IMG/VR virus record: IMGVR_UViG_3300025133_000036
Span: 32,001 to 96,000 of that record
Source of the DNA: a virus
DNA length: 64,000 bases
Direction: 5' to 3' (one strand)
A program made the position numbers and the translations under genes. Position 1 is the stretch's first letter, and each line of letters begins with the position of its first letter. The notes under the pieces are model-generated. The model was not told the DNA's origin, made no database searches, and saw nothing but the letters and a program-made list of their open reading frames with translations. Positions 9,170 to 62,841 of the stretch are shown in pieces.

Positions 9170-9173
9170 TCTT

Positions 9174-12295: not shown

Positions 12296-13110
12296 TGCCA
12301 AAGATATTAGGAAAATTTACACCATATGACGCGTCAAATAAATTACTTGATGGACGATATGTCGACGGTAATATAACCGGCAGCCAAGTAAGTGCAAGTG
12401 GAGCAATAGTTGCTAGTTCATTTACTGGAGACGGTAGTGGATTAACTGGATTAGCCGCTTCATATACTCAAGCTGAAATCAGTGGCGCATTAGGCACAAA
12501 TGCAGATTTTATAAGAAACCAAACCGCTGATAAAGTTAGTGGTTCATTGGGCACAAATGCAACATTTTTACGAAATTTAACTCCAGATAAAGTAAGTCAA
12601 TCGTTAGGTTCTAATGCCACTTTTTTACGATCACACACTTCTGCAAATGTAAGTGGTGCTTTGGGTGCAAATGCACCATTTATACGATCATTAACTCAAG
12701 CCGACGTAAGTGGTTCATTAGGAACCAACGCTAATTTTATACGAAATCAAACTGCTGGGAAAGTCAGTGGTTCATGGCAAGGGGAATTATCTTCAAGTGA
12801 GCTTACTTTTGCAGGTGGTGGTATTAGCGGTTCAGTTACGTCTACAGGTTCATTTAGTAGAGTAGAAGTTAGCGCAGACGGATTTGCTATCGGCGGAACA
12901 GAGATTAACCAAACTGTGGCCCAAAATATTACAGCTTTAGATCAACAACTATATACCGCTTCTACACCAACTTTCGCAGGAGTTACATTAACAGGTGATA
13001 GTACATTTGGTAATGCTCTTACTGATACGTATAAAGCTACCGGTAGCTTGAAAATTACAGGCTCTTTAGAAGTCGATGGTGTATTTAATATAGATGGAGG
13101 AACATTTTAA
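12295..13110 (+). CDS. Virion fibre/appendage protein with 19-aa tandem repeats
   Basis: S/G/T-rich; FTGDGSGLTG fibre motif; ends IDGGTF. Confidence 0.7.
   Translation: MPKILGKFTPYDASNKLLDGRYVDGNITGSQVSASGAIVASSFTGDGSGLTGLAASYTQAEISGALGTNADFIRNQTADKVSGSLGTNATFLRNLTPDKVSQSLGSNATFLRSHTSANVSGALGANAPFIRSLTQADVSGSLGTNANFIRNQTAGKVSGSWQGELSSSELTFAGGGISGSVTSTGSFSRVEVSADGFAIGGTEINQTVAQNITALDQQLYTASTPTFAGVTLTGDSTFGNALTDTYKATGSLKITGSLEVDGVFNIDGGTF
12469..12777 (+). repeat. Five and a half copies of a 19-aa (57-nt) repeat, xxxVSGsLGtNAxFlRxxT
   Basis: QAEISGALGTNADFIRNQT / ADKVSGSLGTNATFLRNLT / PDKVSQSLGSNATFLRSHT / SANVSGALGANAPFIRSLT / QADVSGSLGTNANFIRNQT / AGKVSGSW. Confidence 0.9.
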
Positions 13111-13301
13111 TGGATAAAGATATTGCAAAACGCGCAAAAGATATGATGGTCGAATTTAGTGCCTTAGGTCATAAACTTTCACGCTTAGCCCATGATGCGG
13201 CATTAACAGGGGATAAAACTCAAAACCGTCAGTTCGGGAAAGTCGCAAAAGAATACCAAAAGTTTTTTGGTGAATTAAAAAAATTACACAAACTATTATA
13301 G
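13110..13301 (+). CDS. Small hypothetical protein
   Basis: 63 aa; TAATG overlap with the upstream gene and GGAGG SD. Confidence 0.65.
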   Translation: MDKDIAKRAKDMMVEFSALGHKLSRLAHDAALTGDKTQNRQFGKVAKEYQKFFGELKKLHKLL

Positions 13302-13356
13302 TTTTAATCCTATTCATATGAGCAAATATATATTTGTATAAGGAGGCCGTTATATA

Positions 13357-16300
13357 ATGGCAAAACAGCACACAGTAAAACTTAAAAGATCTGCAGTCGA
13401 AGGTCGAGCGCCTAATACTGGAAGTTTAGTTCTTGGTGAATTAGCTATCAATACTTATGATGGTAAAATTTATTTTGAAAAAAGTGGAAGCGTTGAAAGT
13501 ATACAGCAAATTGTTACATCCGATGCACATACGTCAGGTTCAATAGATATTTCTGGTGCAGTTACGGCTTCTTTTTTCAAAGGTGATGCTTCAGGACTAT
13601 CAAATATACCCACTGGTCCACAAGGTAATCAAGGAAATCAAGGTAACCAAGGTAACCAAGGAAACCAAGGAAACCAAGGTAATCAAGGTAACCAAGGAAA
13701 CCAAGGAAACCAAGGTAATCAAGGTAACCAAGGTAATCAAGGTCGTCAAGGACCATTAGGTCCACTCGGCCCTCAAGGTAACCAAGGAAACCAGGGTAAT
13801 CAAGGTAATCAAGGTTCTGAAGGTAACTTCGGTGGTGCAACATTTGAATATGATTTTAGTACAACAACAACGACTTCTGATCCAGGAACAGGAAAATTAA
13901 GATTTAATCAAGCGGATCAAAATACTGCTACAAATATTTATATTGATGAAACGGATGTAAATGGTACTGATATTTCGAATTATCTAGTTACGATAGATGA
14001 TTCTACTTCAACTATCAAAGGCCATGTTAAAATATCAAATAAATTAGATTCCGCACAATTTATATTAGGAACGATATCAAGCCAAACTGACAATACCGGA
14101 TGGCATACAATTATCATATCTGTTATCGATTCTTCTGCTACATCACCATTCAGTGATACAGAAGATATATTGGTTACTTTTGCCAGAACAGGTGATAAAG
14201 GCGATACAGGAAATCAAGGACCCCAAGGAAACCAAGGCCCATTAGGTCCACAAGGCAACCAAGGCAACCAAGGTAATCAAGGCAACCAAGGTGATACCGG
14301 CGCTCAGGGTAACCAAGGTAATCAAGGTCCTACAGGCCAAACAGGTAATCAAGGTAATCAAGGCAATACTGGTCCATTAGGCCCACTCGGTCCTCAAGGT
14401 AATCAAGGCAACCAAGGCAATCAAGGTAACCAAGGTCGTCAAGGACCACTCGGTCCTCAAGGTAATCAAGGCAACCAAGGTAATCAAGGAAATCAAGGTC
14501 GTCAAGGCCCACTCGGTCCGCAGGGCAATCAAGGAAACACCGGTCCACTCGGCCCTCAAGGTAACCAAGGAAACCAAGGCCCATTAGGTCCACTCGGCCC
14601 TCAAGGTAACCAAGGAAATACCGGCCCACTCGGTCCTCAAGGAAATCAAGGCAATCAAGGTCGTCAAGGACCACTTGGCCCACTCGGTCCTCAAGGTAAT
14701 CAAGGTAACCAAGGTCGTCAAGGTCCACTCGGTCCACAAGGCAACCAAGGTCGTCAAGGACCACTCGGTCCACAAGGCAACCAAGGTAATCAAGGAAACC
14801 AAGGAAACCAAGGTCCAATCGGTAACACCGGCCCTCTTGGTCCTCAAGGTAATCAAGGCAACCAAGGTAATCAAGGCAACCAAGGTCGTCAAGGTCCACT
14901 CGGTCCTCAAGGTAACCAAGGAAATACTGGATCAACTGGTGCTCAAGGTAACCAAGGCAACCAAGGTAACCAAGGCAGACAAGGACCACTCGGTCCTCAA
15001 GGTAACCAAGGCAACCAAGGCAACCAAGGCAGACAAGGACCACTCGGTCATCAAGGTGCAAATGGTCCTTTAGGTCCTCAAGGCAACCAAGGTAATACTG
15101 GCGCTCAGGGTAATCAAGGAAATCAAGGTACTGAAGGTAATTTCGGTGGAGCTTCATTCGAATATAATTTTGCTACAGCCACTACAATGCAAGACCCAGG
15201 AAGCGGTGCTTTAAGACTTAATGCCGCAGACCAAAATACCGCTACTAACATAGCTATTGATGAATTAGATGCCGATGGTACTGATATATCATCGTATCTC
15301 CAAACTATAGATGACAGTACATCTACGATTAAAGGTCATGTAAAGATTTCAAACAAAACTGATAGTAGTCAGTTTATATTAGGTACGATATCAAGTCAAA
15401 CCGACAATACAGGATGGCACACAATTGTTATATCTGTAGTTGATTCATCAGCTACATCACCATTTAGTAATGCAGAAGATATTATAGTTACCTTTGCCAG
15501 AACAGGTGATAAAGGCGATACTGGAGCTCAAGGTAATATAGGTGCTCAAGGTAACCAAGGTAACCAAGGCAATCAAGGAAGACAAGGACCAGCAGGTACT
15601 GGTGCTCAAGGTAACCAAGGTAATCAAGGTAACCAAGGTAACCAAGGCAATCAAGGAAGACAAGGACCAGCAGGTACTGGTGCTCAAGGTAACCAAGGTA
15701 ATCAAGGCCGTCAAGGACCAATAGGAAATACTGGTCCAATTGGAAATACTGGTGCTCAAGGTAACCAAGGAAATCAAGGAAATACTGGATCAACTGGTTC
15801 TCAAGGTAACCAAGGTCCAATTGGAAATACTGGTGCTCAAGGTAATCAAGGTAACCAAGGAAATCAAGGAAATACTGGATCAACTGGTTCTCAAGGTAAC
15901 CAAGGTAATCAAGGTCGTCAAGGACCATTAGGTCCACTCGGCCCTCAAGGCAACCAAGGTAATCAAGGCAACCAAGGTAATCAAGGAAATACTGGCCCAC
16001 TCGGTCCTCAAGGAAATCAAGGTAACCAAGGTCGTCAAGGTCCACTTGGACCACAAGGTAATCAGGGAAATCAAGGTAACCAAGGTAATCACGGCAACCA
16101 AGGTAACCAAGGTAATCAAGGGCCATTAGGTCCACAAGGAAATCAAGGAAATCAAGGTTCTGAAGGTAACTTTGGTGGAGCATCTTTTAAATATACTTTT
16201 GAAGCCGATACAGATGCAACAGACCCGGGAGCCGGAAAAGTAAAATTAAATCAGACCGATCAAAATACCGCTACAAATATATACATTAACGATGCAGATG

Positions 16301-19300
16301 TAGATGCTACAGATATATCAAGTTATTTAGTTACTATTGACGATTCTACTTCTACTATTAAAGGTCATGTTAAAATTTCAAATAGAATTGATGCATCCCA
16401 ATTTATATTAGGTACAATATCAAGCCAAACGGATAACTCTTCTTACCATACTATTGTTATATCTGTAATTGACTCATCTGCTACGTCACCATTTTCAGAT
16501 GATGAAGGAGTACTAATAACATTTGCCAGAACAGGTGATAAAGGTGATACTGGCGCTCAAGGACCAACCGGTCCATTGGGCCCTCAAGGCAACCAAGGCA
16601 ACCAAGGTAATCAAGGAAATCAAGGTCGTCAAGGCCCACTCGGTCCGCAAGGTAACCAAGGTAATCAAGGTAATCAAGGAAATCAAGGAAATCAAGGTCG
16701 TCAAGGCCCACTCGGTCCTCAAGGAAATCAAGGCAATCAAGGTCGTCAAGGCCCACTCGGTCCTCAAGGAAATCAAGGCAATCAAGGTCGTCAAGGACCA
16801 CTCGGTCCTCAAGGCAACCAAGGTAACCAAGGCAGACAAGGACCAATCGGTCCTCAAGGAAATCAAGGTAACCAGGGTAACCAAGGTAATCAAGGGCCAT
16901 TAGGTCCACAAGGAAATCAAGGAAATCAAGGTTCTGAAGGTAATTTCGGCGGTGCAACATTTGCCTATACTTTTGAGACAAATACTAATAACGCAAATCC
17001 AGGTGCTGGTGATATTAGACTTGATAATGCTACACAAAATGCAGCAACAGGAATTTACATATGTGATACTGATGAAGATGGTACAGATATAGCATCTTAT
17101 TTACAAACTATTGACGATTCTACAAGTACTATAAAAGGTCATGTAAAGATTTCAAATAAATTAGACTCAAGTCAGTTTATACTATGGACAATTTCAAGTT
17201 TAACGGATAACAGTGGTTACTTTGACATTACAGTAAGTCCTGTTGATTCATCAGCTGCAGCACCATTTAGTGCTGCAGAAGATATCATAGTTACTTTTGC
17301 TAGAACAGGTGATAAAGGTACAACTGGAGCTCAAGGTAACCAAGGTCGTCAAGGCCCACTCGGTCCTCAAGGAAATCAAGGTAATCAAGGCAGACAAGGA
17401 CCAATCGGTCCTCAAGGAAACCAAGGCAACCAAGGTAACCAAGGCAGACAAGGACCAATCGGTCCTCAAGGAAACCAAGGTAACCAAGGAAACCAAGGTA
17501 ACCAAGGAAATCAAGGCAGACAAGGACCAATCGGTCCTCAAGGAAATCAAGGTAACCAAGGTAATCAAGGTCGTCAAGGTCCACTTGGTCCACTCGGTCC
17601 TCAAGGTTTTCAAGGAAATCAAGGTAACCAAGGAAATCAAGGCAACCAAGGTAACCAAGGTAATACAGGCGCTCAGGGTGATACTGGTGCTCAGGGTAAC
17701 CAAGGCAACCAAGGTCGTCAAGGCCCACTCGGTCCGCAAGGTAACCAAGGTAACCAAGGCAACCAAGGTAATCAGGGTAACCAAGGTCGTCAAGGTCCAC
17801 TTGGTCCACAAGGTAACCAAGGTAACCAAGGAAACCAAGGTAACCAAGGAAACCAAGGTAACACTGGCCCTCTCGGTCCTCAAGGTAATCAGGGCAATCA
17901 GGGTAATCAAGGCGATGAAGGTAATTTTGGTGGCGCCTCTTTCGAATATGATTTTAACACAGCCACTTCTGGAGATCCAGGGGCTGGCAAACTATTATTA
18001 AATCAAACAGATGAAAATACTGCTACTATTCTTCACTTAGATGATGTTGATATAGATGCAACAGATATACAATCTTACTTAAGAACTATTGATGATTCTG
18101 ATTCGACTATTAAAGGTCACGTTAGAATTTCTAATAAAGTTGATAGTTCACAATTTTTATTATTTCAAATTACAGCCACATCTGAAGAGACAGGATATTT
18201 TACTGTTACAATAAGTAATATAGCTTCTTCAGCTACATCTCCTTTTACATTAAATGAAAGAGTTATTGCCACATTCGCTAGAACAGGTGATAAAGGTGAT
18301 ACAGGAACACAAGGATCAACGGGCTCTCAAGGAAATCAAGGTAACCAGGGTAACCAAGGCAACCAAGGTCGTCAAGGCCCACTCGGTCCGCAAGGTAACC
18401 AAGGCAACCAAGGCAACCAAGGTCGTCAAGGTCCACTTGGACCAACTGGCCCACAAGGCAATCAAGGTAACCAAGGTAATCAAGGAAATACTGGCCCACT
18501 CGGTCCTCAAGGAAATCAAGGTAACCAGGGAAGACAAGGACCATTAGGTCCTCAAGGTAACCAAGGTAATCAAGGCAACCAAGGTCGTCAAGGTCCACTT
18601 GGACCTCAAGGAAACCAAGGTAACACCGGCCCTCTCGGTCCTCAAGGTAATCAAGGCAACCAAGGTAATCAAGGCAACCAAGGTCGTCAAGGTCCACTTG
18701 GACCTCAAGGAAACCAAGGTAATACTGGCCCAACTGGGCCCCAAGGTAATCAAGGAAGACAAGGCCCACTTGGACCACAAGGTTTTCAAGGTAATCAAGG
18801 CAATCAAGGCAATACCGGTCCACTCGGTCCTCAAGGAAATCAAGGCAATCAAGGCAATCAAGGCAACCAAGGTCGTCAAGGACCACTTGGACCACTTGGA
18901 CCACAAGGCAACCAAGGTAATCAGGGTAACCAAGGTCGTCAAGGACCACTTGGACCACTTGGACCACAAGGCAATCAAGGTAACCAAGGTCGTCAAGGAC
19001 CACTCGGTCCTCAAGGCAACCAAGGTAATCAGGGCCCACTTGGCCCACAAGGTAATCAGGGTGATACCGGTTCAGCAGATATATCATCTGCAGCGAATAA
19101 TAGAGTAATAACGTCTACAGGTACATCTACTGGTTTAGTAGCAGAGGGTAATTTGACATTTGATGGTTCTACATTAAATCTGTCCGGTGATCAAGTAATT
19201 ACAGGAGATCTTAGAGCAGTTGGATCAATAACGGCTAATGAATTAATTGTAAGTTCTTCTGTAACACATATGACACAATCATTTAGTAGTGGTTCAACAA

Positions 19301-20679
19301 TATTCGGTGATACTTTAGATGATACTCATCAGTTTACAGGTTCACTATTAGTTACAGGCTCAGCAACTATAGGTGGTGCTGCAACATTTGCTAAGACTAT
19401 TACTTCGATAGGTCAACTTTCAGTTGAAAATGCTGCACCCCAAGTAGTCATAAAGAGTACAGATACAAGTAATGGTGATGCTACTCTATCACTTATTTCT
19501 GATAATGGTGCCACAAACGCAGATTATTGGAAAATAAAAGCAGTTGCACCAGGGGATGAATTACAGTTTCTAAATGGAAATGATGCATCTTGTTTTACAC
19601 TAAACTCTTCTGGCAACGCCACATTTGCTTCGAGTGTACAATTAAGTGATGGTCAGCAAGTCCAATGGGGAGGAGGCAATAATGCTATTTTTGGACACGA
19701 TGCAAGTGATTATGTTGCTATAAAAACCAATGGAACAGATAGATTAAAAATAGATGATACAGGATTTGCCTTTTATAATATGCCAATCAAACTATCGGCT
19801 ACTGAAAAATTATATTTAGATGGTGGTAGCAACACTTACATAGAAGAAGATTCAGCAGATACCATTATAATTGCGACGGGTGGCACTACTGCTTTAACGC
19901 TTGACTCGTCCCAAAACGCCACATTTGCTGGTACAATAGGTTCAGGAGTAATTACATCTACAGGTCATAGTACTTTTGGTACTGTTGGTACTACCAGTGT
20001 GTGGGTAACTAATTTATATGATGGGAATAGTGCAGATAATTCAAGCATTGTTTTTGGTGGTACGAGTGATTTTATAAAATTTTATACAGATGGTCAAACG
20101 AGTGCAGACTTGGCTCTAACTCTTGATTCATCTCATAATGCTACGTTTGGTGGAAACATAAGTGGTTCAGCAACCTCAACTGGTTCGTTTGGTTCATTAG
20201 TAGTTTCTGATAAAGTACAAGGTGCAATCACATTTGGTAGTACCGTATCAGCACAAGGAAATGTAGAAATTAGAAAATCATATCCTGATTTAAATCTAAG
20301 AGCTGGAGATGAACAAAGAATTAATTTTGTTGATGATGGTAATGGTACTCAAAGTGGAATAAAGAACAACGCTGGTACAATGAAGTTTTATGGTAATAGT
20401 AGTTCTACTAAAATAAGAATGACCATAGATGATGATAATGCAACGTTTACTACTGACATATTACCTTCAGCTGATGCAACCTATGATTTAGGTTCAGGTG
20501 CTGCAAGATGGGCTAACTTATTTACAGCAGATTTAAATTTATCTAATGAAGGTACTCAAGGAAATGATGTTGATGGAACAAATGGTAATTGGACCATCCA
20601 AGAAGGCGCAGAAGACTTATATTTATTGAATAATAAGAACGGTAAAAAATACAAATTTAAGCTTGAGGAGATCATATAA
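13357..20679 (+). CDS. Giant collagen-like fibre protein 1 (2440 aa)
   Basis: N-terminal [11 protein letters not shown]...[15 protein letters not shown] fibre-anchor motif. Six G-X-Y blocks ([12 protein letters not shown]) are separated by five copies of a ~128-aa domain. The beta-rich C-terminus ends in DLNLSNEG...[23 protein letters not shown], a module I recognise from T4-like fibre proteins. Confidence 0.9.
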
Positions 20680-23600
20680 ATGCCTATACAATCAGAAGAT
20701 CTAGTACTAAGTGGATCGATTATATACAACCTCGATGAGGGTGGTGAGTTAACATTACCAAAAGTATCATCAGATCCCGCTACGTCAACGCTTGAAACCG
20801 GCTCTTTATTTTTTAATACAACAGATGATTTACCTAAATTTTTTACTGGTAATCAAATCTCTATATTTAGAGGTCCTCAAGGTTTTCAAGGTAATCAAGG
20901 TCGCCAAGGCCCGTTAGGACCATTAGGTCCACAAGGTAACCAAGGTAACCAAGGTAATCAAGGAAATACCGGCCCACTCGGTCCTCAAGGTAATCAAGGT
21001 CGCCAAGGCCCGTTAGGACCAACCGGACCACTCGGTCCTCAAGGAAATCAAGGCAATACAGGTCCACTCGGTCCTCAAGGTAATCAAGGCAATCAGGGCA
21101 ATCAAGGCAACCAAGGAAGACAAGGACCATTAGGTCCAACTGGTAATACAGGTCCACTCGGTCCTCAAGGTAACCAAGGCAATCAAGGAAGACAAGGACC
21201 ATTAGGTCCACTTGGACCATTAGGTCCACAAGGCAACCAAGGTCGTCAAGGTCCACTCGGCCCAACCGGTCCACTCGGTCCTCAAGGAAATCAAGGCAAT
21301 ACAGGTCCACTCGGTCCTCAAGGTTTTCAAGGTAATCAAGGTAACCAAGGAAATCAAGGCAGACAAGGACCACTCGGTCCTCAAGGTAACCAAGGTAATC
21401 AAGGCAGACAAGGACCACTCGGTCCTCAAGGTAACCAAGGTAATCAAGGAAGACAAGGCCCATTAGGTCCAACTGGTAATACAGGACCACTCGGTCCTCA
21501 AGGCAATCAAGGAAATCAAGGTGATGAAGGTAATTTTGGCGGAGCAGCTTTTTCATATGATTTTAGTACCTCAACAACTGATTCTGACCCTGGTTCCGGA
21601 ATTATTCGATTAAATAATATTCTTCAAGCCAATGCAACTATAATTTATATCGATGATGCTGATAAAGATGGCACCGATATACAAACTTATTTACGAACAA
21701 TAGATGACTCTACTTCAACCATTAAGGGTCACGTTAAAATTACAAATAAATTAGACTCAAGTCAGTTTATACTATGGACAATTTCTTCACTTGCTGAAGC
21801 ATCAGGATATTTTAAAATAACTGTTTCACCAGTTGATGATTCTAATGAAACACCTGGCCCATTTGATAACGGTGAAGATATTTTAATCACATTTGCCAGA
21901 ACAGGTGATAAAGGTGATACAGGAGCACAAGGCAATCAAGGTAGACAAGGTCCACTTGGACCACAGGGACCAACCGGTCCACTTGGACCACAAGGAAATC
22001 AAGGTAACCAAGGTAATCAAGGCAGACAAGGCCCACTCGGCCCTCAAGGTAACCAAGGAAGACAAGGACCATTAGGTCCACTCGGTCCTCAAGGTAATCA
22101 AGGAAATACTGGCCCACTCGGTCCTCAAGGAAATCAAGGTAACCAAGGTAATCAAGGTCGCCAAGGACCATTAGGTCCAACCGGACCATTAGGTCCAACC
22201 GGACCACTCGGACCCCAAGGCAATCAAGGAAGACAAGGCCCACTTGGACCACTCGGACCCCAAGGCAATCAAGGCAATACCGGCCCAACCGGTCCACTCG
22301 GCCCAACCGGTCCTCAAGGAAATCAAGGTAATCAAGGCAGACAAGGCCCATTAGGTCCTACAGGTAGTATTGGTCCTCAAGGCCCAACAGGCCTAACTGG
22401 ACCCCAAGGTAATCAAGGAAGACAAGGCCCACTTGGACCACAAGGTTTTCAAGGTAATCAAGGAAGACAAGGCCCACTTGGACCACAAGGTTTTCAAGGT
22501 AATCAAGGAAGACAAGGCCCACTTGGACCAGTCGGTCCAGACGGTCCTAGAGGCTATCAAGGTTTTCAAGGTAATCAAGGTCGTCAAGGCCCACTTGGAC
22601 CACAAGGTAATCAAGGTCGTCAAGGCCCACTTGGACCACAAGGTTTTCAAGGTAATCAAGGTCGTCAAGGCCCACTTGGACCACAAGGTTTTCAAGGTAA
22701 TCAAGGTCGTCAAGGCCCAATCGGTCCACAAGGTTTTCAAGGTAACCAAGGAAGACAAGGCCCACTTGGTCCAGTCGGTCCAGACGGTCCTAGAGGCTAT
22801 CAAGGTTTTCAAGGTAATCAAGGAAGACAAGGCCCACTCGGCCCTCAAGGTAACCAAGGAAGACAAGGCCCACTTGGACCAGTCGGTCCAGACGGTCCTA
22901 GAGGCTATCAAGGTTTTCAAGGTAATCAAGGAAGACAAGGCCCACTTGGACCACAAGGTAATCAAGGAAGACAAGGCCCACTTGGACCACAAGGTTTTCA
23001 AGGTAATCAAGGTCCACTTGGACCAGACGGTCCAGACGGTCCTAGAGGTTATCAAGGTTATCAAGGTAATCAAGGTCGTCAAGGCCCACTTGGACCACAA
23101 GGTAATCAAGGAAGACAAGGCCCACTTGGACCACAAGGTAATCAAGGAAGACAAGGCCCACTTGGACCACAAGGTTTTCAAGGTAATCAAGGTCCACTTG
23201 GACCAGACGGTCCAGACGGTCCTAGAGGTTATCAAGGTTATCAAGGTAATCAAGGTCGTCAAGGCCCACTTGGACCACAAGGTTTTCAAGGTAATCAAGG
23301 TCGTCAAGGACCACTTGGACCAGACGGTCCAGACGGTCCTAGAGGTTATCAAGGTTATCAAGGTAATCAAGGTCGTCAAGGACCACTCGGTCCTCAAGGC
23401 AGACAAGGCCCAATCGGTCCTCAAGGCAGACAAGGCCCAATCGGTCCACAAGGTTTTCAAGGTAATCAAGGTCGTCAAGGCCCAATCGGTCCACAAGGTT
23501 TTCAAGGTAATCAAGGTCGTCAAGGCCCAATCGGACCACAAGGACCTAGAGGTTATCAAGGTTATCAAGGTAATCAAGGTCGTCAAGGACCACAGGGTGA

Positions 23601-24060
23601 TAGAGGCTATCAAGGTTATCAAGGTAATCAAGGTCGTCAAGGCCCACTCGGACCAACAGGAAATACAGGACCAACAGGAAATACAGGACCAACAGGAAAT
23701 ACAGGCCCAACTGGAAATACAGGTCCAGCTGGTGCAGCAACTACAATATTTAGTTGGGATTTAGCAGGTGGATTTGCTGGAACATGGTATACTTTACCCA
23801 AGCATGCTAGTATGGGCGCATTCACTACAGTAAACCTTTATAGAGTTTGTTCAACAGGGACAGCAACAATAACTGTTCAATACAAAACCAGTATTGGTGG
23901 ATCTTGGTCCAGTGTTACTAATTTAACAAGTGAAACTTTTGATACTACAGAAAGATTAGAAACAGATGGTTCATTGTCTACTTCCGGAAATGTTTGGTTT
24001 AGAATCTATGCATCTGCATCATCTATGTCTAACGGAATTGTTTGTGTCTCTATCTCTTAG
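20680..24060 (+). CDS. Collagen-like fibre protein 2 (1126 aa)
   Basis: Two G-X-Y blocks around one copy of the shared ~128-aa domain, then a ~110-aa C-terminal beta domain; GAGGAG SD. Confidence 0.9.
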
Positions 24061-24400
24061 TACAACTTTATCTAATGGTAAAACTTTATCTCAATTTTAT
24101 GATGACTACTTTCAATGGACAGCGGATAATCTTTTTGACGACTTTACGAATGAAGAGCAATCCGCATTGAAAGATGTCTTTATTATTTCAGATAATACGA
24201 TTGTTGAAGCATATAAAAATGATAATTCTATAACCTGGGATTCTTCAATAACTACAGAAAACGGTACAGAGGTAATTTCCCAATACTATTTAAATGTCTT
24301 TATACCATATAGGAGTTATCATGATGATCTTGTAGCTATGGATTGCTACACTGAATATAAATATGAATCTTTAATGGAAGTAATAGGAGACCTAATTTAA
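24044..24400 (+). CDS. Hypothetical protein, possible fibre chaperone or adaptor (probable GTG start at 24044)
   Basis: The ORF-track start 23966 overlaps the fibre gene by 95 nt. The in-frame GTG at 24044 gives a short overlap, and the stop overlaps the next ATG. Confidence 0.6.
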
Positions 24401-26595
24401 TGGCTTACGGATTTCAACTAATGGGCGGAAACCATGATATAGATGATGGATCAGCTATTAATCGAAAATATACTCATGGTTTTTGGTCGCATAAAAACCC
24501 ATTTGTGATTAAAGATACTAAAGCTGAAGATAATGGTGCCAATCCTTATTATGGTTATACTGCTATTCCATACATTAGTAAAGAAAGCAGTAGTACTTAT
24601 TATGATATAAGATTGGCTATGTTAGGTAATGATGATTCCAAAATAGAAGATAATTATTTAGTTACCTACTATACTAGTAAATATTCTTATTTCCCTATTG
24701 CTTATTGGGTTAAATGGGATGTTCTTTTAGTTATATGGTGTACGAGAAAGATTGGGATGAGAAGGGCCGTACTTAAATATAATGGGGGAACAAGCTTTAC
24801 TGTTATAGCATCGGCAGCTACTATTTTTTCTCATACAGGTAATTATGATTATAATGTATGGCCCCTTATAAAAAGGGATGCTTATGGAGCTTTGCATATT
24901 ATATACGGATATAGGGGTACTACTTGTAAATTGAGATATTATTATTTTAATAATGACGGAGGAGATGGCAATGAATATGATTCCACCTATTGGGCGACAG
25001 CCAATTTTTTATTGGGTAAGGAATGGACTAGTAGTTCTTCGCCCGCTTTCGGTGGGAATGCCACCTACCCTGAGGCTACTTTCTTAGACATTATAGATGA
25101 TACTCTTATAATAGGAGGTGTATCTCCAGAATCATCCAATGTAAATAAGATAAAGGTAACACATAAGAGTTTAGCTACGGCTTATAATAGTTGGCCCAGT
25201 TCTTGGACTTTAGATTCCGGCGAATTACCGGCGAACTCTGTATCCTACAGTAGTAAGTGGAGACATTATGGTCCGGGAAATACAACTGTAGTTAATGCTT
25301 CAGATGGGAGTACTTATGGGGGTGCTAGATATCTGATATTTTCTTTTAATAAAGTTTATTATAGCTCAACTTATTATTGCCCATTTGTATCAAAAATAAC
25401 ATTAGATTCATCTGGGGCACCCACGGCTATTACTGTATCTGGCGGGGATTTAGGTTTCATGTATCCCACTGCTGCTGCTGGCACTGGACCACTTATTAAT
25501 GATGGAAAATCTTGTAGGGGTATGGGAATATTTCCTGTTTATCCTGCTGGATTTACACAGCTTTACGTAGATAGAGCAAGTCAACAAACTACTGATGCAA
25601 GAACTCTACAAGCTGTAAGGTGGACCCTTGGAAGCTCCGCGGATGATAATTCTACTATTAATACAAATCCACAACGAGTACATTTTGATGCGGCCGGCCT
25701 AGGAGGTGGAACCGCAGATAACTCAATGCTCATGATTGAAGGCGGATCTTCAGGCATCCGGGAATTTGAGCACCTTCTTCAAGATGTTGCTAACTGGGGA
25801 CAATTTAATCAGCAACATTCTGAAATGCACGTTTCTACCCCGGGTACTTTTTTGTCCCAGTTTGCCACTCATCCTCGAGCTGGCGTATATTTTGCGGACC
25901 ATGGTCCAACAGCTGACGATAGTAAGGGTGTAACATATAACCTAGGTAAACAAAACAAAGCATGGAGATGGATCGCAAGAGAAAAAAGTGATACTACAGA
26001 TAAATATTTAAGAGTTAGTGATACTCATGCTGAATTTCATAATACTATTTCCCCTGGTGGTGGTACTGAAAAGCTGGATAGTGAAATATTTTGGTCTATG
26101 GATAGAGAATCGACTTATGCAGCCAGGGGTGCTTGTGTATTAAGTGCAATGGACAATGATCCTGGGTCCTTATCTTTTAGTAATGAAGGATCAGATGATA
26201 GTGAGATGGACTTTGAAATTTCTGATATTGATTCTTTACTAACCAGTACAGCCTCTCCTTCTTCCACTAATCATCAAATGCCGGCTTATATTAGGGTTGT
26301 AGCTTTTGTACAGGGGGATGAACCTTCAAATGCGGACTTTAATAAATCTCTAGATCCATTTGGAAGTACAAGTATTATAGGTGATGCTGCAGGGGAAACA
26401 GGAATGGTTCCTTTAGATTTTAATAACAATATTTTTACCGGGAATATACAATGGTCTGTACCTAGTCAGGAGCCAATGGTGATATTTTATGCTTTTTATG
26501 ATGGTAGAAGATTACCTTGTATGATGAATACAACAGTATCTACAAATGGTTATAGAAGCGGTCAATATTATGGAAAGGCAACAACGGCCGCTTAA
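24400..26595 (+). CDS. Hypothetical Tyr/Ser/Gly-rich beta protein, candidate receptor-binding or fibre-tip protein
   Basis: 731 aa between collagen fibre genes; AGGAG SD; no family motif recognised. Confidence 0.65.
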   Translation: MAYGFQLMGGNHDIDDGSAINRKYTHGFWSHKNPFVIKDTKAEDNGANPYYGYTAIPYISKESSSTYYDIRLAMLGNDDSKIEDNYLVTYYTSKYSYFPIAYWVKWDVLLVIWCTRKIGMRRAVLKYNGGTSFTVIASAATIFSHTGNYDYNVWPLIKRDAYGALHIIYGYRGTTCKLRYYYFNNDGGDGNEYDSTYWATANFLLGKEWTSSSSPAFGGNATYPEATFLDIIDDTLIIGGVSPESSNVNKIKVTHKSLATAYNSWPSSWTLDSGELPANSVSYSSKWRHYGPGNTTVVNASDGSTYGGARYLIFSFNKVYYSSTYYCPFVSKITLDSSGAPTAITVSGGDLGFMYPTAAAGTGPLINDGKSCRGMGIFPVYPAGFTQLYVDRASQQTTDARTLQAVRWTLGSSADDNSTINTNPQRVHFDAAGLGGGTADNSMLMIEGGSSGIREFEHLLQDVANWGQFNQQHSEMHVSTPGTFLSQFATHPRAGVYFADHGPTADDSKGVTYNLGKQNKAWRWIAREKSDTTDKYLRVSDTHAEFHNTISPGGGTEKLDSEIFWSMDRESTYAARGACVLSAMDNDPGSLSFSNEGSDDSEMDFEISDIDSLLTSTASPSSTNHQMPAYIRVVAFVQGDEPSNADFNKSLDPFGSTSIIGDAAGETGMVPLDFNNNIFTGNIQWSVPSQEPMVIFYAFYDGRRLPCMMNTTVSTNGYRSGQYYGKATTAA

Positions 26596-52764: not shown

Positions 52765-54971
52765 TGATACCAAAAAAATATAAAACTATGATAGCTGATG
52801 CACTAACTAGAGCATCTTATCGTACAAAAAATGGAATGATAGATCTATCAAACGATTTAGATTTATTCATAGTTGTTGAAGAATTACGTAAAGAATTTTC
52901 GGAAGATATAATTCAAAAAGCGTTATTTATTGAAATTTCTCAAAATGATGATGATTATACAAATATTGGCGGTTCTGGTTATGTATTGACAAAAGCTCTC
53001 CCAGATGATTGGGACCAAGAAAAAGATGGTATCCCTTCTGATGCTCAACGGTTCACTAAAGGTAAAGATGGAAAATATAGTTCTTCAGGAAAGGAGAAGA
53101 AGGTGAAGGCTACATCACAAGCTTTAAGCCCACAGGATTTTCCAGAAATGGGAGACGAGGGTAAACCTGACGTTGATCCAAAACAAGTTGAAAAAGATAA
53201 GAAAAAAGCCGAAAAATTAGAAAGAGAAACAGAAGCTAAAAAAGAAGTTGTTAAAACTGAAACGAGTGGAACACTTGACCAGGTAGCATGGGAAAACGAT
53301 ACAGATCAAGAAGAGTTTCAAACTGCATTTGATAAACTCGTCAATGGTGAAGAGCTCACTGAAGAAGAACTAGCAATGATAAATAAATATGCAGCCGTAA
53401 AAGACAGCGATAGTGAAGCTGCCCTTTATTTGCCAAATCAAACGCCAGGTGATTTTAGACAAGGAGCAAGGGTTAAAGTAGAATTGGGAGGCAGTGCGGC
53501 AGCAAAAAGAGTATTGGCTCAAATGGTTGAAAATGGAATCCAAACTGCAGATCCTGTTACAACAGCTGAATCAGTACCAGCGAAATTGAAAACAAAAGAT
53601 GCTACATTAGGTAAAATATCGGGTGGAAAAACAAAATCACATACAATAACAACTGAAAAAGATAAAGACGGTAGGGTTATTTCTGTAACAGTTGCAGGTA
53701 AGGTTATGCGAAGGCAGCTTGAGCCTGATGCTGATGTACTCATTAAAGAAGTTGTTGAAATGATTGATCAAGGGAAATCTCCCGAAGACGCTGCACGTGA
53801 AGCGCAAAAAATCCTTGCTGGAATAAAACGATACAATAATTTAATTGATAAGTACGCATCTGCAGATCCTGCAGTAATGGAAACAGTTGAACTCGTCCCA
53901 GGCGCGGATGTATCTACACCAGAAGGAAGAAATAGAGTTGCTTCAGAAGGTCCAGGCATAGTAGCGGATGCATTAGAAAAAATGATAGATGACCCTACTG
54001 AAGCTGAACGGAAAGTACTTGATAGGATCAGAAAATTAGGTGATATTGAAGACGCAGAAGAATATGAACGTGAAGCCATGGCTATTTTAAAACGTATGGG
54101 TGAAATTTCATCTATTAAAAAAGGAGCTCCTGATGTTGCTGAAGCATTAGTATTATGCGCAATGAATAAAAAGGGTATACCAACTGTAGCGCCAGCAGGA
54201 GAAACTTTTAAGGTTGCAGATTTAATACAATTAGCTGAAGAAGATCTAGATCCTACAGATCCGGAATATTTACAAAAATTAGCAGCTGGTGGACCAGTTG
54301 TAGTATTTATGACAACTGCTGGTGGATTAAGTGTTAAAAAAGATGGCGGCGCTGCATCAGGGTTTGAAGCAAAATTAGGAATGACAACGTTTAAGCTTCC
54401 TGAAACAAAAAACATGCTAACAGCAATTTTAGACCACCACAATCATGGCATTGCAACTACAAAGAAGGGTGAAGAGTTATCTCCAACAAGAATAGCGACA
54501 GCAAAAAAGAAATTAGATGAAGTTGAAAAATGGGCCAGAGAAAATGATTTAGTTGATGATAACGATTTAAAATTTAAAGATGGTAGATCACCGGAAGAAT
54601 GGGCAACTGATAGCGTTGCGGATTGGCAAGCAAAAGGTACATTACCACCAGATTGTCCAACAAAAAACGCTAAAGGTGAGTGCCTATCGGACGATAATAA
54701 GAAGAATTTGATCGACGGTCTTCACCAATACGCTCGGGGCGGGTTACTAGCTCAAGCAATTCACAATAACGATTTAGATTTCCAAGATTATCATAACGCA
54801 AACGCAAATACTAGAACTGGTGAAATTGAACTTAGTGATGGAATTGAGTGTTTAAATGATATGCAATTTTCTGCTAATCCAGGCTTTAAAATGAAAAAAG
54901 ATAAAAACGGAAATTTTATAATGCGACCTAACGCTGTTTATGCCGGTAATTTACACAAGCGCTGCAGATGA
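52764..54971 (+). CDS. Large hypothetical protein, possible PD-(D/E)xK-like C-terminal domain
   Basis: 735 aa; AEALV...PAGETFKVADL...GLSVK spacing is reminiscent of a restriction-endonuclease-like fold. Confidence 0.55.
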   Translation: MIPKKYKTMIADALTRASYRTKNGMIDLSNDLDLFIVVEELRKEFSEDIIQKALFIEISQNDDDYTNIGGSGYVLTKALPDDWDQEKDGIPSDAQRFTKGKDGKYSSSGKEKKVKATSQALSPQDFPEMGDEGKPDVDPKQVEKDKKKAEKLERETEAKKEVVKTETSGTLDQVAWENDTDQEEFQTAFDKLVNGEELTEEELAMINKYAAVKDSDSEAALYLPNQTPGDFRQGARVKVELGGSAAAKRVLAQMVENGIQTADPVTTAESVPAKLKTKDATLGKISGGKTKSHTITTEKDKDGRVISVTVAGKVMRRQLEPDADVLIKEVVEMIDQGKSPEDAAREAQKILAGIKRYNNLIDKYASADPAVMETVELVPGADVSTPEGRNRVASEGPGIVADALEKMIDDPTEAERKVLDRIRKLGDIEDAEEYEREAMAILKRMGEISSIKKGAPDVAEALVLCAMNKKGIPTVAPAGETFKVADLIQLAEEDLDPTDPEYLQKLAAGGPVVVFMTTAGGLSVKKDGGAASGFEAKLGMTTFKLPETKNMLTAILDHHNHGIATTKKGEELSPTRIATAKKKLDEVEKWARENDLVDDNDLKFKDGRSPEEWATDSVADWQAKGTLPPDCPTKNAKGECLSDDNKKNLIDGLHQYARGGLLAQAIHNNDLDFQDYHNANANTRTGEIELSDGIECLNDMQFSANPGFKMKKDKNGNFIMRPNAVYAGNLHKRCR

Positions 54972-55369
54972 TTAAACTAAAAGGCATATTAATGGAAGAT
55001 AAGATTGTGGATACCGCCGGTATAATAGTACGTTCAGATGCCGGCATTATTTTATGTAAAGAAAGAAATAGTGATTATCAATGGGGAATTCCAAAGGGTA
55101 AAGTTGACCCAGGTGAAACACCGATACATGCGGCATGCCGTGAGACGCTTGAAGAAGCTTCAATATTAGTTAAAGTAAATGGAAGCCATTTAAACACACC
55201 GGTCGAGGAAGTTAAAATTGCAAAAAATTCTAGAGGAGGTAAGTTTTTTATCTATGAATGCACTTTAAAACTATCAATAATACCAAATAAAAGTTTAGAA
55301 CACGATGAAGTAAAATATTTTAGAAACCTTCCAGAAAATATTGACACACGATTAGAAGGATTATTATAA
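54968..55369 (+). CDS. NUDIX hydrolase
   Basis: Nudix box WGIPKGKVDPGETPIHAACRETLEE. Confidence 0.9.
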   Translation: MIKLKGILMEDKIVDTAGIIVRSDAGIILCKERNSDYQWGIPKGKVDPGETPIHAACRETLEEASILVKVNGSHLNTPVEEVKIAKNSRGGKFFIYECTLKLSIIPNKSLEHDEVKYFRNLPENIDTRLEGLL

Positions 55370-55758
55370 TGAAAACACAATTACTATGCACTTTTTGCGT
55401 AAAACACGAATTTGACACAACTGTTGACCTAATATCTTTAGCTGCAAACGTTGTATTTAATAAAATATATGCGTTTGAAAATCTAGACGATCCTCAGCAA
55501 ATAATTTGTACTTATAATGTAGAAAAATTGGATGACTTTGTTCAAAACAATAAAACAATGGCGATCCACCGGAAAAAAGAAACTAATACTTTATATACTA
55601 TAAATGCTTTAAATGAAGCAATTCGTGAGAATAATGATGGAGTATTAGATAAGTCTTTTTCTTTAGACTGGTCAATGTATCAAAACAGTTTACTTCTTAC
55701 GAACGATAAAGGTCTTAACGTTGTAAAAACAAAATTATATAAAATTGTAAACGTCTAG
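55369..55758 (+). CDS. Conserved-looking hypothetical protein
   Basis: 129 aa; LLCTF, ICTYNV and HRKKETNTLYTINALN. Confidence 0.75.
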   Translation: MKTQLLCTFCVKHEFDTTVDLISLAANVVFNKIYAFENLDDPQQIICTYNVEKLDDFVQNNKTMAIHRKKETNTLYTINALNEAIRENNDGVLDKSFSLDWSMYQNSLLLTNDKGLNVVKTKLYKIVNV

Positions 55759-55766
55759 GACCTCCC

Positions 55767-56000
55767 ATGGAAATTTCAATCGAATATTGTATGCAATGAA
55801 ATTACGAGCCACGAGCCTTCAGGTTGAGGGACGAACTTGGAATTAAATATCCGAATATTGATGATTTTGATATGATACAATCAAAGGGCGGAGTATTCGA
55901 AATTAAACAAATAAACTCATCTAGCGATGAAATATTGCTATTTAGTAAAATTGCCACAGGAAGATTTCCACATCAAGATGAAATAAAAATAAAGTTATAA
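55767..56000 (+). CDS. SelW/SelT/SelH (Rdx family) selenoprotein, 77 aa, Sec encoded by in-frame TGA at 55797-55799
   Basis: Not in the ORF track. After an AGGA SD it reads MEISIEYCMQ-U-NYEPRAFRLRDELGIKYPNIDDFDMIQSKGGVFEIKQINSSSDEILLFSKIATGRFPHQDEIKIKL. It has CxxU, GGVFEI and FSK...GRFP Rdx motifs. Confidence 0.88.
55812..55833 (+). promoter_or_regulatory. Bacterial-type SECIS hairpin
   Basis: CG-ag-CCTTC-AGGTT-GAGGG-a-CG; the apical loop begins about 22 nt after the UGA and contains GU. Confidence 0.7.
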
Positions 56001-56067
56001 AAAACCTGCTTTTCGCCTTTTAATATTATATATATTTTATTACACTTACAAATGTAATAGTTTTTTG

Positions 56068-56495
56068 AAAATTTGAATTTTTTGGAAAGTACAGAGGAGT
56101 AATTAACTCTGTATGGGATTGGCCGAACAATGAGTGGATGAAGAAGCTCATAAGGCAATCTACCTTCAGATCTATAGTGGATCGGTATTCGGGCAAAATG
56201 CACAATATCTTACGACAGTATTGAGGGCTAATGTACTTCTAGAAAAACTTAAAGAACAGCGATTCTTTGACCTTGTTGTGGGTAAGGGTAATACCGAAAT
56301 CCCACCAAGCTGGCTGAATAATCCAAACTTAGAGGGATAAGGCTCCTAACAGAGGTTGTGCTCGCTCAAATGTAAGGTAACACTTATGAGGAGAATCGAC
56401 TTAACCGTCGGGGAAAGGGAACAAGGTAGAAAAATCTAAGCTAGAAGTTGTAGTGTAATCGCAAATCCTACATCCTACCAAATAATTCAGATTTT
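56068..56495 (+). ncRNA. Candidate large structured non-coding RNA (~428 nt), family unassigned
   Basis: 18-bp terminal stem 56068-56085/56478-56495 (one mismatch, one GU), several perfect 7-8-bp internal and long-range helices, a probable pseudoknot, higher GC than the flanks, and a promoter-like ATATATATT at 56028. Confidence 0.75.
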
Positions 56496-56560
56496 GACAA
56501 TGTAACTGTATATATATTAATGTAAATAAACAATGACAAATAAAAATAGGAGTAAATGTT

Positions 56561-57316
56561 ATGGATATTACCGCCATTAAGGCTCGCCTTAATCAACTTC
56601 AACAAGTTAATACAAGAACCTCTTCACTGTGGAAACCTTCACCAGGAAAATCTCAAGTGCGTATAGTACCTTATAAGCACAATCCGGATTCGCCATTTAT
56701 TGAATTATATTTCCATTATGATATCGGTGAAAGATCATACTTGTCACCTGCATCATTTGGCCGTCCAGATCCAATTGAAGAATTTGCAGTTAAGTTGAAA
56801 ACATCTGGAAATAAAGACGATTACAAATTAGGAAGAAAAATCGAGGCTAAAATGCGTACTTTCGCACCTGTTATAGTCCGCGGTGAAGAATCCGAAGGTG
56901 TAAAGTTTTGGGGTTTTGGTAAAACAGTTTATCAAGAGCTTCTTTCTATCATTGCAGATCCAGATTATGGTGATATTACTGATCCAGTAAGTGGTCGCGA
57001 TATTGTAGTTGAGTTTAAAACTAAAGAAGAAACTGGTAAGTCATTTCCAATGACGGCTGTTCGTGCAAAACCAAATCAAACTCCGGTAACGGAAGATCCT
57101 GAGGTTATGAAGACAATCAAAGACACTCAAAAACAAATTACTGAGATTTACCAAGAGCAATCTTATGATGATTTAAAAGAAGTCCTAAGTGGATTTCTAA
57201 ATCAAGAATCAGAGCTCAGTGATAGTGACTTAAATACTGATGCAGTAAAGACTCCAGTTAAAGCTGGTAAAACTGAAGATGTATCGAGTGCTTTTGACGA
57301 TCTATTCAACAACTAG
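56561..57316 (+). CDS. Single-stranded DNA-binding protein (gp32-like)
   Basis: LWKPSPG..VRIVP, FGRPDPI, FWGFGKTVY and DITDPVSGRDI; acidic/aromatic tail SAFDDLFNN. Confidence 0.85.
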   Translation: MDITAIKARLNQLQQVNTRTSSLWKPSPGKSQVRIVPYKHNPDSPFIELYFHYDIGERSYLSPASFGRPDPIEEFAVKLKTSGNKDDYKLGRKIEAKMRTFAPVIVRGEESEGVKFWGFGKTVYQELLSIIADPDYGDITDPVSGRDIVVEFKTKEETGKSFPMTAVRAKPNQTPVTEDPEVMKTIKDTQKQITEIYQEQSYDDLKEVLSGFLNQESELSDSDLNTDAVKTPVKAGKTEDVSSAFDDLFNN

Positions 57317-60867: not shown

Positions 60868-62841
60868 ATGAATGAAAAATTTACGTTGTCACTTGGGTTT
60901 ATAGATAAGTACAAAAGAAAAAAACCACCATTCGGATTTAATGGATTAGGAGAGTTAGTTTATATGCGGACCTATTCTCGCATAAAAGATGACGGTAAAA
61001 ATGAAATGTGGTGGGAAACTATTCAACGAGTTGTAGAAGGCACATATTCTATGCAAAAAAGTTGGATTGACCAACATCAACTTGGTTGGAATCCTTGGCA
61101 AGCACAAGCGTCTGCTCAAGAAATGTATGACAGAATGTTTAACATGAAGTTTTTACCTCCTGGTCGGGGGTTATGGGCGATGGGAACCGCGATAACAGAA
61201 GAAAAGAATCTTTACGCAGCGCTTAATAATTGTGCATTTGTATCTACAAAAACACTAAAAGAAGATCACGCAAAACCGTTTTGTTTTTTGATGGATGCGT
61301 CAATGTTAGGTGTAGGGGTCGGTTTTGATACAAAAGGTGCCGGCGAGATAATGATAAAAGGTATCGCGACTAACAGAGATGTACAACAGTATGAAATACC
61401 AGATACTCGTGAGGGGTGGGTAGATTCTGTTAGAATTCTATTAGAAAGTTATTTCCATGGAACTGCTCCAATTGAATTTGATTATACAAAAATAAGACCT
61501 GCAGGAATTCCAATTAAAGGTTTTGGAGGACAGTCAAGTGGACCGGATCCGTTAAAAGAAGTTCATGAAAAAATCCGGATAACTTTAGAAACCAATACTG
61601 GAGATCCAATTACAATAACTACAATCGTCAACATAATGAACCTTATTGGCAAGTGTGTAGTAGCAGGAAACGTAAGAAGAACTGCTGAGATCGTGTTTGG
61701 AGATCCAGATTCTGAAGAATATCTAGATCTTAAAAATTATAAAGTTAATCCTGAGAGAGAAGAATTTGGATGGACGTCAAATAATTCTATATTTGCAGAA
61801 CTTGGTATGGATTATACCGAATCAGCAAAAAGAATTATAGATAATGGTGAACCAGGATTCGCATGGTTAGAAAACATGAGAAAATATTCTCGCATGAAAA
61901 ATGGTGGAGACAATAAAGATCATCGTGCTATGGGTGGTAATCCTTGTTTAGAGCAAACATTAGAGTCTTATGAATTATGTTGTCTTGTTGAAACTTTTCC
62001 AAATAATCATGAGTCTTTGGATGATTATGCTAGAACATTAAAATACGCATATTTGTATGCAAAAACCGTCACTCTTGGTAAAACACAGTGGTCTGAAACA
62101 AATCGTGTAATGTTAAGAAATCGAAGAATAGGATGTTCAGTGAGTGGCGTTGCTCAATTTATCACCAATCACGGTTTAGGAGAATTAAAGACTTGGTTAA
62201 ATTCTGGATATGACGTTATACAAGAATGGGACAAAATGTATTCTGATTGGTTTGCAGTACCACGTTCAATCAAAACTACATCTGTTAAACCTAGCGGTAC
62301 AGTTTCACTCCTCGCGGGAGCAACACCTGGATTACATTACCCAGAAAGTCGATTCTATATACGAAGGATCCGATTAGGAATCAATTCAGAATTAATTATG
62401 CCACTAGAAAAAGCCGGATATAAAATAGAACCCGCATTCGGTTCAGAATCTACTACAGTTGTTGTTGAAGTTCCAGTCGATGCCGGTCAAGGTATCAGAA
62501 CAGTTAATGACTTATCTATTTGGGAACAATTCAGTTTAGCTGCATTTATGCAAAGACATTGGGCCGATAATCAGGTGAGCTGCACAGTCACATTTGATCC
62601 TAAAACAGAAGGCGTAGAATTACCTCAAGCATTAACTTACTTTCAATATCATTTAAAAGGAATCAGTTGTTTACCGAAACATGATTCTGGTGCTTATCGT
62701 CAAATGCCGTATGAAGAAATAGATAAAAAAACTTATAAAGGTATGCTTTTAAAATTAAAAAAATTAAGCTTTAGAAAAGTCAAAGGTAATGAGGCTATTG
62801 TTGAAAAATTTTGCGATGGAGATACGTGTGAACTTGAATAA
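60868..62841 (+). CDS. nrdJ: Class II (adenosylcobalamin-dependent, monomeric RTPR-like) ribonucleotide reductase
   Basis: RTYSR, PPGRGLW, LNNC, GNVRRTAE, NPCLEQ, VKPSGTVS and DNQVSCT; C-terminal CDGDTC. Confidence 0.9.
   Translation: MNEKFTLSLGFIDKYKRKKPPFGFNGLGELVYMRTYSRIKDDGKNEMWWETIQRVVEGTYSMQKSWIDQHQLGWNPWQAQASAQEMYDRMFNMKFLPPGRGLWAMGTAITEEKNLYAALNNCAFVSTKTLKEDHAKPFCFLMDASMLGVGVGFDTKGAGEIMIKGIATNRDVQQYEIPDTREGWVDSVRILLESYFHGTAPIEFDYTKIRPAGIPIKGFGGQSSGPDPLKEVHEKIRITLETNTGDPITITTIVNIMNLIGKCVVAGNVRRTAEIVFGDPDSEEYLDLKNYKVNPEREEFGWTSNNSIFAELGMDYTESAKRIIDNGEPGFAWLENMRKYSRMKNGGDNKDHRAMGGNPCLEQTLESYELCCLVETFPNNHESLDDYARTLKYAYLYAKTVTLGKTQWSETNRVMLRNRRIGCSVSGVAQFITNHGLGELKTWLNSGYDVIQEWDKMYSDWFAVPRSIKTTSVKPSGTVSLLAGATPGLHYPESRFYIRRIRLGINSELIMPLEKAGYKIEPAFGSESTTVVVEVPVDAGQGIRTVNDLSIWEQFSLAAFMQRHWADNQVSCTVTFDPKTEGVELPQALTYFQYHLKGISCLPKHDSGAYRQMPYEEIDKKTYKGMLLKLKKLSFRKVKGNEAIVEKFCDGDTCELE

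Follow-up and report, generated by a model that had tools for sequence, protein, structure and literature searches.

A SelW-like gene with an in-frame UGA codon and a bacterial-type SECIS hairpin in an uncultured marine T4-like phage

Recruitment of SelB by a hairpin lying just 3' of the UGA codon is the standard bacterial mechanism of selenocysteine (Sec) insertion. So far, Sec recoding is known from cells and from two poxviruses, and we found none described for bacterial viruses. The accessible part of a 2021 recoding review names only two poxvirus selenoproteins, the glutathione peroxidase homologues of molluscum contagiosum and fowlpox (PMC8310308), and an excerpt of a further article reports predicted tRNA-SeC genes in Basilisk-like Bacillus phages (PMC6145125). 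According to the extracts available, SelW-like proteins are the most abundant selenoprotein family of marine prokaryotes, with 427 Sec forms against 56 Cys forms in GOS (PMC2398784), and make up 11.3% of selenoprotein genes (PMC9402790). As far as its available text goes, the latter study reports viral sequences as absent or very few in families other than RNR II, plastocyanin and Cu-Zn SOD (PMC9402790), and the words phage, virus and viral do not occur in the available portion of a 2026 review of the prokaryotic selenoproteome (PMC13188914). We found no report of a phage-encoded selenoprotein in the full-text literature, and the supplements of PMC9402790 and PMC2398784, which give sequences of selenoproteins together with taxonomic assignments, could show viral SelW-like matches.

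Here we describe a gene of this family in a viral record. The window (the whole stretch of DNA that was analysed, 64,000 nucleotides) comprises bases 32001-96000 of a 132,165-bp linear IMG/VR virus record, rated by CheckV as about 70% complete. Only one in-frame TGA occurs in 55767-56000, and reading through it gives MEISIEYCMQ-U-NYEPRA...GGVFEI...LFSK..TGRFP..DEI. Every feature that the initial annotation had named here (AGGA, ATG 55767, CMQ-TGA, TAA 56000 and the hairpin) was recovered at the position given for it (Table 1). The AGGA shares bases with the TAG (55756-55758) that ends the 129-aa gene upstream, and in the syntenic relative L008 an AGGAGG precedes a GTG start. The promoter-like site that lies before the 129-aa gene could possibly be the start of a transcript also covering the selenoprotein gene, a suggestion that we regard as weak. 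The gene had been described as invisible to standard gene callers, and this proved to be the case: both the ordinary ORF list and the public protein collection entry for the contig (P0002) hold only a truncated 58-aa stub, beginning at TTG 55824.

Table 1 Features of the SelW-like locus and of the tRNA genes discussed in the text
Feature	Position	Strand	Basis or remark
Shine-Dalgarno-like AGGA	55757-55760	+	read from sequence; 6 nt before ATG 55767
SelW-like (Rdx family) selenoprotein gene, 77 residues	55767-56000	+	ATG 55767; TAA 55998-56000
C-x-x-U redox motif: Cys8 (TGT 55788-55790), Met, Gln, Sec11 (TGA)	55788-55799	+	translation
In-frame UGA, inferred Sec codon	55797-55799	+	TGA conserved in relatives; same TGA in runs X2, X3
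Bacterial-type SECIS hairpin within the coding sequence	55816-55830	+	covariation; register common to bacterial Sec-form genes; bSECIS model
Promoter-like TTGACA-18-TATAAT, 12/12 consensus	55341-55370	+	consensus match only, weak evidence
tRNA-Ala/tRNA-Cys genes	record G000 100456-100605 (after the window); L137 830-903, 1502-1576		tRNA finding

We estimate a probability of about 85% that the locus is a functional gene of the phage, encoding a thiol/selenol oxidoreductase of the SelW-like type (Rdx-fold, thioredoxin-like), and that its UGA is read as Sec by means of the hairpin and the host machinery. Sec insertion, host dependence and redox function are inferences, and direct evidence is lacking for both Sec insertion and expression.

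Family, fold and motif could be established directly. With Sec replaced by Cys for the profile searches, the protein matched the Pfam family Rdx (PF10262; E 4.2e-17, 62.5 bits against a cut-off of 22.6) over residues 2-74, and the Rdx-family similarity thus runs on both sides of the UGA, as had been claimed. The cut-off of the NCBIfam model TIGR02174 (SelT/SelW/SelH) was also met (51.8 bits, cut-off 34.2). The top-scoring NCBIfam model was the equivalog NF041051 (SelTWH_Campy), for which membership was not met (76.4 bits, below the cut-off of 88). The AlphaFold2 model (pLDDT 95.5, pTM 0.84) consists of a strand at 2-8, a helix at 14-27 and strands at 33-39, 44-49 and 55-60, with C8-x-x-U11 placed between the strand 2-8 and the helix 14-27; it passed a test for a thioredoxin-like beta-alpha-beta-beta-beta-alpha fold with CxxC/CxxU between strand 1 and helix 1. 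Foldseek aligned it to 2oka, 2obk and 2fa8 with TM 0.81 and rmsd 1.6-1.7 A. A PDB search with a profile of 31 relatives returned the bacterial SelW-related 2fa8 (E 2.4e-18) and, more weakly, 3dex, 2oka, 2obk and 2p0g, as well as MIEN1 and mouse SelW, with Cys at the UGA-aligned position in all matches. The fold model and the structural matches agree with the two family models that scored above their cut-offs, and the proposed Rdx/SelW membership holds. To our knowledge, no physiological substrate has been established for the solved SelW-related proteins.

We then consider the UGA codon itself. IMG/VR was searched with degenerate DNA patterns of the surrounding motif in which the third base of the codon was left free (TGN). 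The tightest pattern found TGA in 8/8 loci and a looser one in 16/16, while the loosest matched 28 loci, 19 of them SelW-like, and all 19 carry TGA. The remaining nine loci encode unrelated proteins, have TGY or TGG at the site and form 0-4 of the 6 hairpin pairs; they therefore act as a built-in negative control. The same pattern, applied to one genome per prokaryotic species, matched at least 120 bacterial loci, and among the matches listed the codon was TGA in 117 of 120, TGC in two and TGG in one. Both TGC loci (among the matches listed) are true Cys forms from Nitrospirota; the single TGG locus among these matches was set aside as a chance match. The Cys homologues looked for at the UGA column exist: 14 representative proteins besides the query, the two TGC genomic homologues and the solved structures. 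The criterion for a bacterial selenoprotein, namely an in-frame UGA aligned with Cys in homologues and a coding sequence conserved on both sides, is met.

The initial annotation had allowed that the TGA might be a sequencing error. This is excluded, because contigs from other samples and studies carry the identical TGA: the X2 contig spans 55367-56600 with 0 differences, the X3 contig spans 55571-56289 with 1 difference (56167), and neither has another letter at 55797-55799. Sixteen studies have runs, labelled marine or seawater metagenomes, that contain the stretch, and contigs over it were compared for four of these runs only. Run X5 (DNA) leaves 55784-55871 uncovered. The RNA run X15 has contigs on 55571-55617 and 56229-56600 only, none over the selenoprotein gene, and is uninformative on its expression.

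Among 50 aligned public-database relatives, the UGA site holds W in 33 and a real Cys in 14. Taken at face value, the W residues would favour TGA being a sense codon throughout the phage or its host (code 4 or 25), an ordinary Trp or Gly. However, the W letters come from code-4 gene models and are artefacts: P0008 is identical to L013 translated with TGA=W. The genome itself also argues against a changed code. Under table 11 its coding density is 95%; TGA ends 15 of the 104 plus-strand genes, and beyond it the frame meets another stop after a median of 3 codons; no suppressor tRNA was found in the record; and the TGA stops at 4039, 54971 and 63759, put forward initially as true stops, each lie in an ATGA overlap with the next gene. 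Moreover, the SelW-like gene of four relatives (L009, L015, L014 and L016) ends in a second TGA at the normal C-terminus. We consider a changed code barely conceivable: the code is standard elsewhere in the genome, and the recoding is specific to this site, as first argued.

Metagenome gene callers chose a TGA=Trp model for many stored SelW-like selenoproteins (P0003-P0053; L013), and other SelW-like selenoproteins are stored as stubs starting after the UGA, for example P0002 and P0027. Standard gene callers hide or garble such genes, with a 58-aa stub here and W at the Sec site in relatives. Two crude scans, which would miss unusual motifs, were made for a second selenoprotein gene in the 132-kb record. 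One of them, for in-frame TGA in uncovered gaps, gave 8 candidates, and the 7 besides the SelW-like gene all lie on the minus strand and look non-coding. In the other, for a TGA with redox-like context and a G-loop hairpin, 2 of 21 TGAs passed, that of the SelW-like gene and one inside a 1054-aa gene (record 6617-9781).

The hairpin, CCUUCA-GGU-UGAGGG, has a 6-bp stem (55816-55821 with 55825-55830) and the loop GGU (55822-55824). The distance from the UGA is 16 nt to the start of the stem and 22 nt to that of the loop, in agreement with the spacing of about 22 nt given initially. It is small and weak, which is a caveat on our main reading: the MFE is -9.4 kcal/mol for 55800-55845 and -4.6 kcal/mol for the stem alone, and the fold of the single sequence is no better than chance (z -0.69, equalled by 43 of 200 shuffles). 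The support for this putative element comes from comparison, not from the single sequence. Across 11 distinct phage sequences, 97% of the 66 cells are paired, and three of the six pairs show compensatory changes (both sides changed, 8 cells), for example a Leu-to-Arg change (CUC to CGU) opposite an Arg codon switch from AGA to CGA. The covariation score was reached by none of 500 shuffles, slid controls pair at 18-59%, and RNAalifold finds the same helix unaided. It is worth noting that the conserved peptide A-[LF]-[SR]-L-R partly confounds the conservation of the hairpin, but the compensatory changes lie largely at synonymous positions. In the 115 distinct bacterial Sec-form sequences among the matches listed, at least five of the six pairs are present in the hairpin register in 110 and the loop starts with G in 114; the commonest bacterial loops among these matches are GUC, GUU and GUG, and the GGU of the window occurs 4 times. 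An alternative 8-bp hairpin that is found in the window only (55818-55825 with 55834-55841) was rejected, being apparently unconserved by eye against L008 alone.

The published bSECIS model, in the part of the source that is available, requires an apical loop of 3-9 nt, an upper stem of 4-16 bp, a G at loop position 1 or 2, a UGA-to-loop distance of 16-37 nt and an MFE at or below -7.5 kcal/mol (PMC13188914). On these terms the SECIS prediction stands, since the window satisfies them (loop 3 nt, stem 6 bp, G position, spacing 22 nt, MFE -9.4); it does not stand with Rfam, whose SECIS families gave no match at E up to 1 in 55600-56700, where a 15-nt hairpin carries little score. The limit of -7.5 kcal/mol, as stated in the same partial source, is met by 4 of the 10 other phage sequences, and the remaining six give -3.4 to -7.2.

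Conservation of the UGA and hairpin in related phages, proposed as a check, was borne out by the 19 TGA loci, by the covariation and by purifying selection on the gene. Between the window gene and 7 of the 11 other distinct phage homologues, dN/dS was 0.10-0.49; the other four were saturated at synonymous sites and gave no ratio. Over the whole frame, 10 of the 16 phage pairs listed gave 0.08-0.49, and the other six were saturated at synonymous sites. These results bear on the reading in which the UGA terminates translation, so that the locus would be a decaying pseudogene, or just the downstream 58-aa ORF (TTG 55824-56000) would be made. Ordinary gene calling does yield exactly this ORF, and UGA is a normal stop elsewhere in the genome. 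In contrast, the 10 codons before the UGA encode the most conserved part of the protein (IEYCxxU) and lie within the Rdx profile match, and a 58-aa product would, according to the structural model, be without strand 1 and the redox motif. The decay that had been named as a possible refutation is not seen either: dN/dS is below 1 in every pair giving a ratio, and 19 viral loci, from four or more genome contexts, have preserved the frame, the UGA and the hairpin. We therefore give termination a very slim chance, and retain Sec insertion as the preferred reading.

The record carries genes for a major head protein, a head-tail adaptor, a tail sheath, gp32, UvsX, a 5'-3' exonuclease, a DnaB-like helicase and a class II RNR. 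It belongs to an uncultured marine T4-like phage, a myovirus, and the viral origin assumed at the outset is supported by the capsid, sheath, adaptor, gp32, UvsX, DnaB and RNR genes. Judged by capsid and UvsX, it comes closest among cultured phages to Microcystis phage Mel-JY01 and Flavobacterium phage immuto, at only about 50% identity. Neither megablast of 54900-56400 nor tblastn of the protein (E up to 0.01) matched any GenBank phage, the short query limiting sensitivity; consequently, no cultured phage relative of the selenoprotein gene was seen. We also observed two giant plus-strand ORFs, 13357-20679 (2440 aa) and 20680-24060 (1126 aa), in the same frame with a single TAA stop between them, and a single 5310-aa ORF before the window, at record G000 10074-26006 (+).

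The selenoprotein gene sits among phage genes for NUDIX, gp32, UvsX and exonuclease. In four relatives (L007, L008, L011 and L012) it occupies the same slot, between the 129-aa gene and gp32, where the flanking proteins are 74-94% identical and SelW only 51-68%. In other related phages it is found beside a SNase-like gene and ThyX, between Fe-S assembly and GlnA-like genes, or near a baseplate gene. We counted four or more distinct neighbourhoods across these phages (L001, L003, L006, L009, L010 and L014-L016), and in L006 the gene is close to HNH endonuclease genes. No constant partner gene emerged among the neighbours (SNase-like, ThyX, Fe-S assembly protein, GlnA-like, HNH endonucleases, baseplate wedge). 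The gene order suggests that the selenoprotein gene may move as a small cassette. The 560-nt gap between the selenoprotein gene and gp32 contains a match of full model length to the Rfam manA RNA (RF01745) at 56277-56481 (+), with E 9e-09 and 40.5 bits, below the gathering score of 55.2; the contigs of RNA run X15 on 56229-56600 overlie it.

In the tree, 12 distinct phage proteins and one long-branch bacterial row form a cluster (SH-aLRT 98), and the AU test does not reject a tree in which the viral proteins form one clade (p-AU 0.709); the alignment behind the tree has 76 columns, and all its rows were selected by motif. Further searches for related loci added nothing: none of 13 pattern matches was confirmed with a single-protein search, and an alignment-based search returned 12 contigs, none beyond those already found. 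One could still argue that the contig is bacterial or chimeric and the gene simply a bacterial SelW-like gene, because the family is widespread in bacteria and IMG/VR records are predictions. Against this stand the phage genes flanking the gene and elsewhere in the record, the location of 104 of the 114 genes on one strand, and the slot occupied alike in four relatives. In addition, the best identity to a bacterial protein is only about 49% among the matches listed, and the phage sequences cluster together. We give this explanation next to no weight, and take the gene to be a phage gene.

How could the phage decode the UGA? The initial annotation had found no SelA, SelB, SelD or tRNA-Sec in the window. 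We widened the search to the full 132-kb record, and tRNA-Sec, selA, selB and selD are likewise absent from it; Sec genes carried by the phage cannot be ruled out completely, since the record lacks about 30% of its genome. Neither selD nor a tRNA-Sec above the cut-off occurs in five further viral records with SelW, among them one of 216 kb that is rated 100% complete. Matches to the tRNA-Sec model in G001 and G002 (25-32 bits, cut-off 47) were discarded as ordinary tRNA-Cys, tRNA-Glu and tRNA-Gly genes. From these results we infer that the Sec machinery must come from the host, which is unknown. The only tRNAs of the 132-kb record are tRNA-Ala(UGC) and tRNA-Cys(GCA), which are adjacent. Both are also found in the 216-kb complete SelW-carrying phage G001, and the tRNA-Cys is an ordinary cloverleaf in both phages.

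The tRNA-Cys leads to the possibility that the UGA is read through with Cys or Trp, by a near-cognate tRNA (possibly the phage tRNA-Cys(GCA)) or by a SelB-delivered Cys-charged tRNA, giving a CxxC or CxxW protein. The presence of this tRNA in both phages and the weakness of the hairpin in several relatives would fit such a reading. However, its anticodon GCA does not pair with UGA. Furthermore, a Cys codon would need only a one-base change to TGY, yet none of the 19 phage loci has TGY, and 110-114 of the 115 bacterial Sec-form genes among the matches listed share the register and the G-first loop of the hairpin. We judge read-through without Sec highly unlikely.

Our model, with Sec as the residue inserted, is the following. 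Translation would start at ATG 55767, and the UGA at codon 11 would be read as Sec, with the hairpin recruiting the SelB of the infected cell together with Sec-tRNA(Sec). The phage would supply the mRNA signal only, and tRNA-Sec, SelA, SelB and SelD would be those of the host. Since the Sec machinery comes from the host, the protein could be made only in a Sec-competent host with selenium. The predicted product would carry its C-x-x-U redox centre at the end of strand 1 and would most likely serve as a small redoxin during infection, with a partner that is unknown. The inferred dependence on host SelB and tRNA-Sec would be a new kind of host dependency and a host-range marker.

A wider hypothesis can be formulated, which we regard as speculative and rather unlikely: that marine T4-like phages of an entire lineage maintain a selenoprotein of their own, which would act as the phage redoxin and supply phage nucleotide synthesis with electrons. 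The 132 kb gave no match to the Pfam models of glutaredoxin or thioredoxin, which leaves room for the SelW-like protein in this role, and a class II (B12-type) RNR is present (window 60868-62841). The hypothesis is based on this RNR without a glutaredoxin or thioredoxin match, and on the ThyX or Fe-S assembly neighbours in relatives. If it were true, replication of these phages would be selenium-dependent and the phages confined to Sec-competent hosts, and part of the very abundant marine 'SelW-like' signal would be viral. Independently of that hypothesis, our results suggest that the marine SelW-like genes attributed to bacteria include some viral ones. The locus also offers a small, tractable test case for the minimum strength at which a bacterial SECIS still functions.

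Compared with the known systems, the solved bacterial SelW-related proteins (2fa8, Atu0228; 2obk, 2oka, 2p0g and 3dex) have a fold like that of the phage protein (TM 0.79-0.84); these structures are CxxC forms, whereas the phage protein is CxxU. MIEN1 (2ljk) and mouse SelW (2npb) align to its model with TM 0.68 and 0.56, respectively, with the CxxC/CxxU motif aligned. Unlike members of the equivalog family NF041051, the phage protein scores below the cut-off. The poxvirus selenoproteins resemble the phage case, to the extent that the available text describes them, in being virus-borne and in relying on host Sec machinery (inferred for the phage), and the fowlpox SECIS lies in the coding region, as it does here (PMC8310308). 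In contrast, they belong to eukaryotic viruses, have the GPx fold and use a eukaryotic SECIS/SBP2 mechanism (PMC8310308, same partial text), whereas the gene described here belongs to a bacterial virus, has the Rdx fold and carries a bacterial SelB-type hairpin just 3' of the UGA. The Basilisk-like Bacillus phages also link phages to selenocysteine, but in the accessible excerpt they appear with the tRNA gene and without a selenoprotein gene (PMC6145125), the reverse of the present case.

The closest likeness is with the bacterial SelW-like Sec-form genes, which share with the phage gene the fold, the length, the N-terminal IEYCxxU, the in-frame UGA, the hairpin register and the G-first triloop; decoding is presumably identical. 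In every testable respect the phage gene is a typical SelW-like selenoprotein gene. It differs from its bacterial counterparts in lying in a myovirus without Sec machinery in the known sequence, in encoding proteins that form their own cluster with at most about 49% identity to bacterial ones (among the matches listed), and in having hairpins that are AU-richer and weaker. What is new is a SelW-like selenoprotein gene kept as a lineage of its own by marine myoviruses that must borrow the recoding machinery, by inference that of the host.
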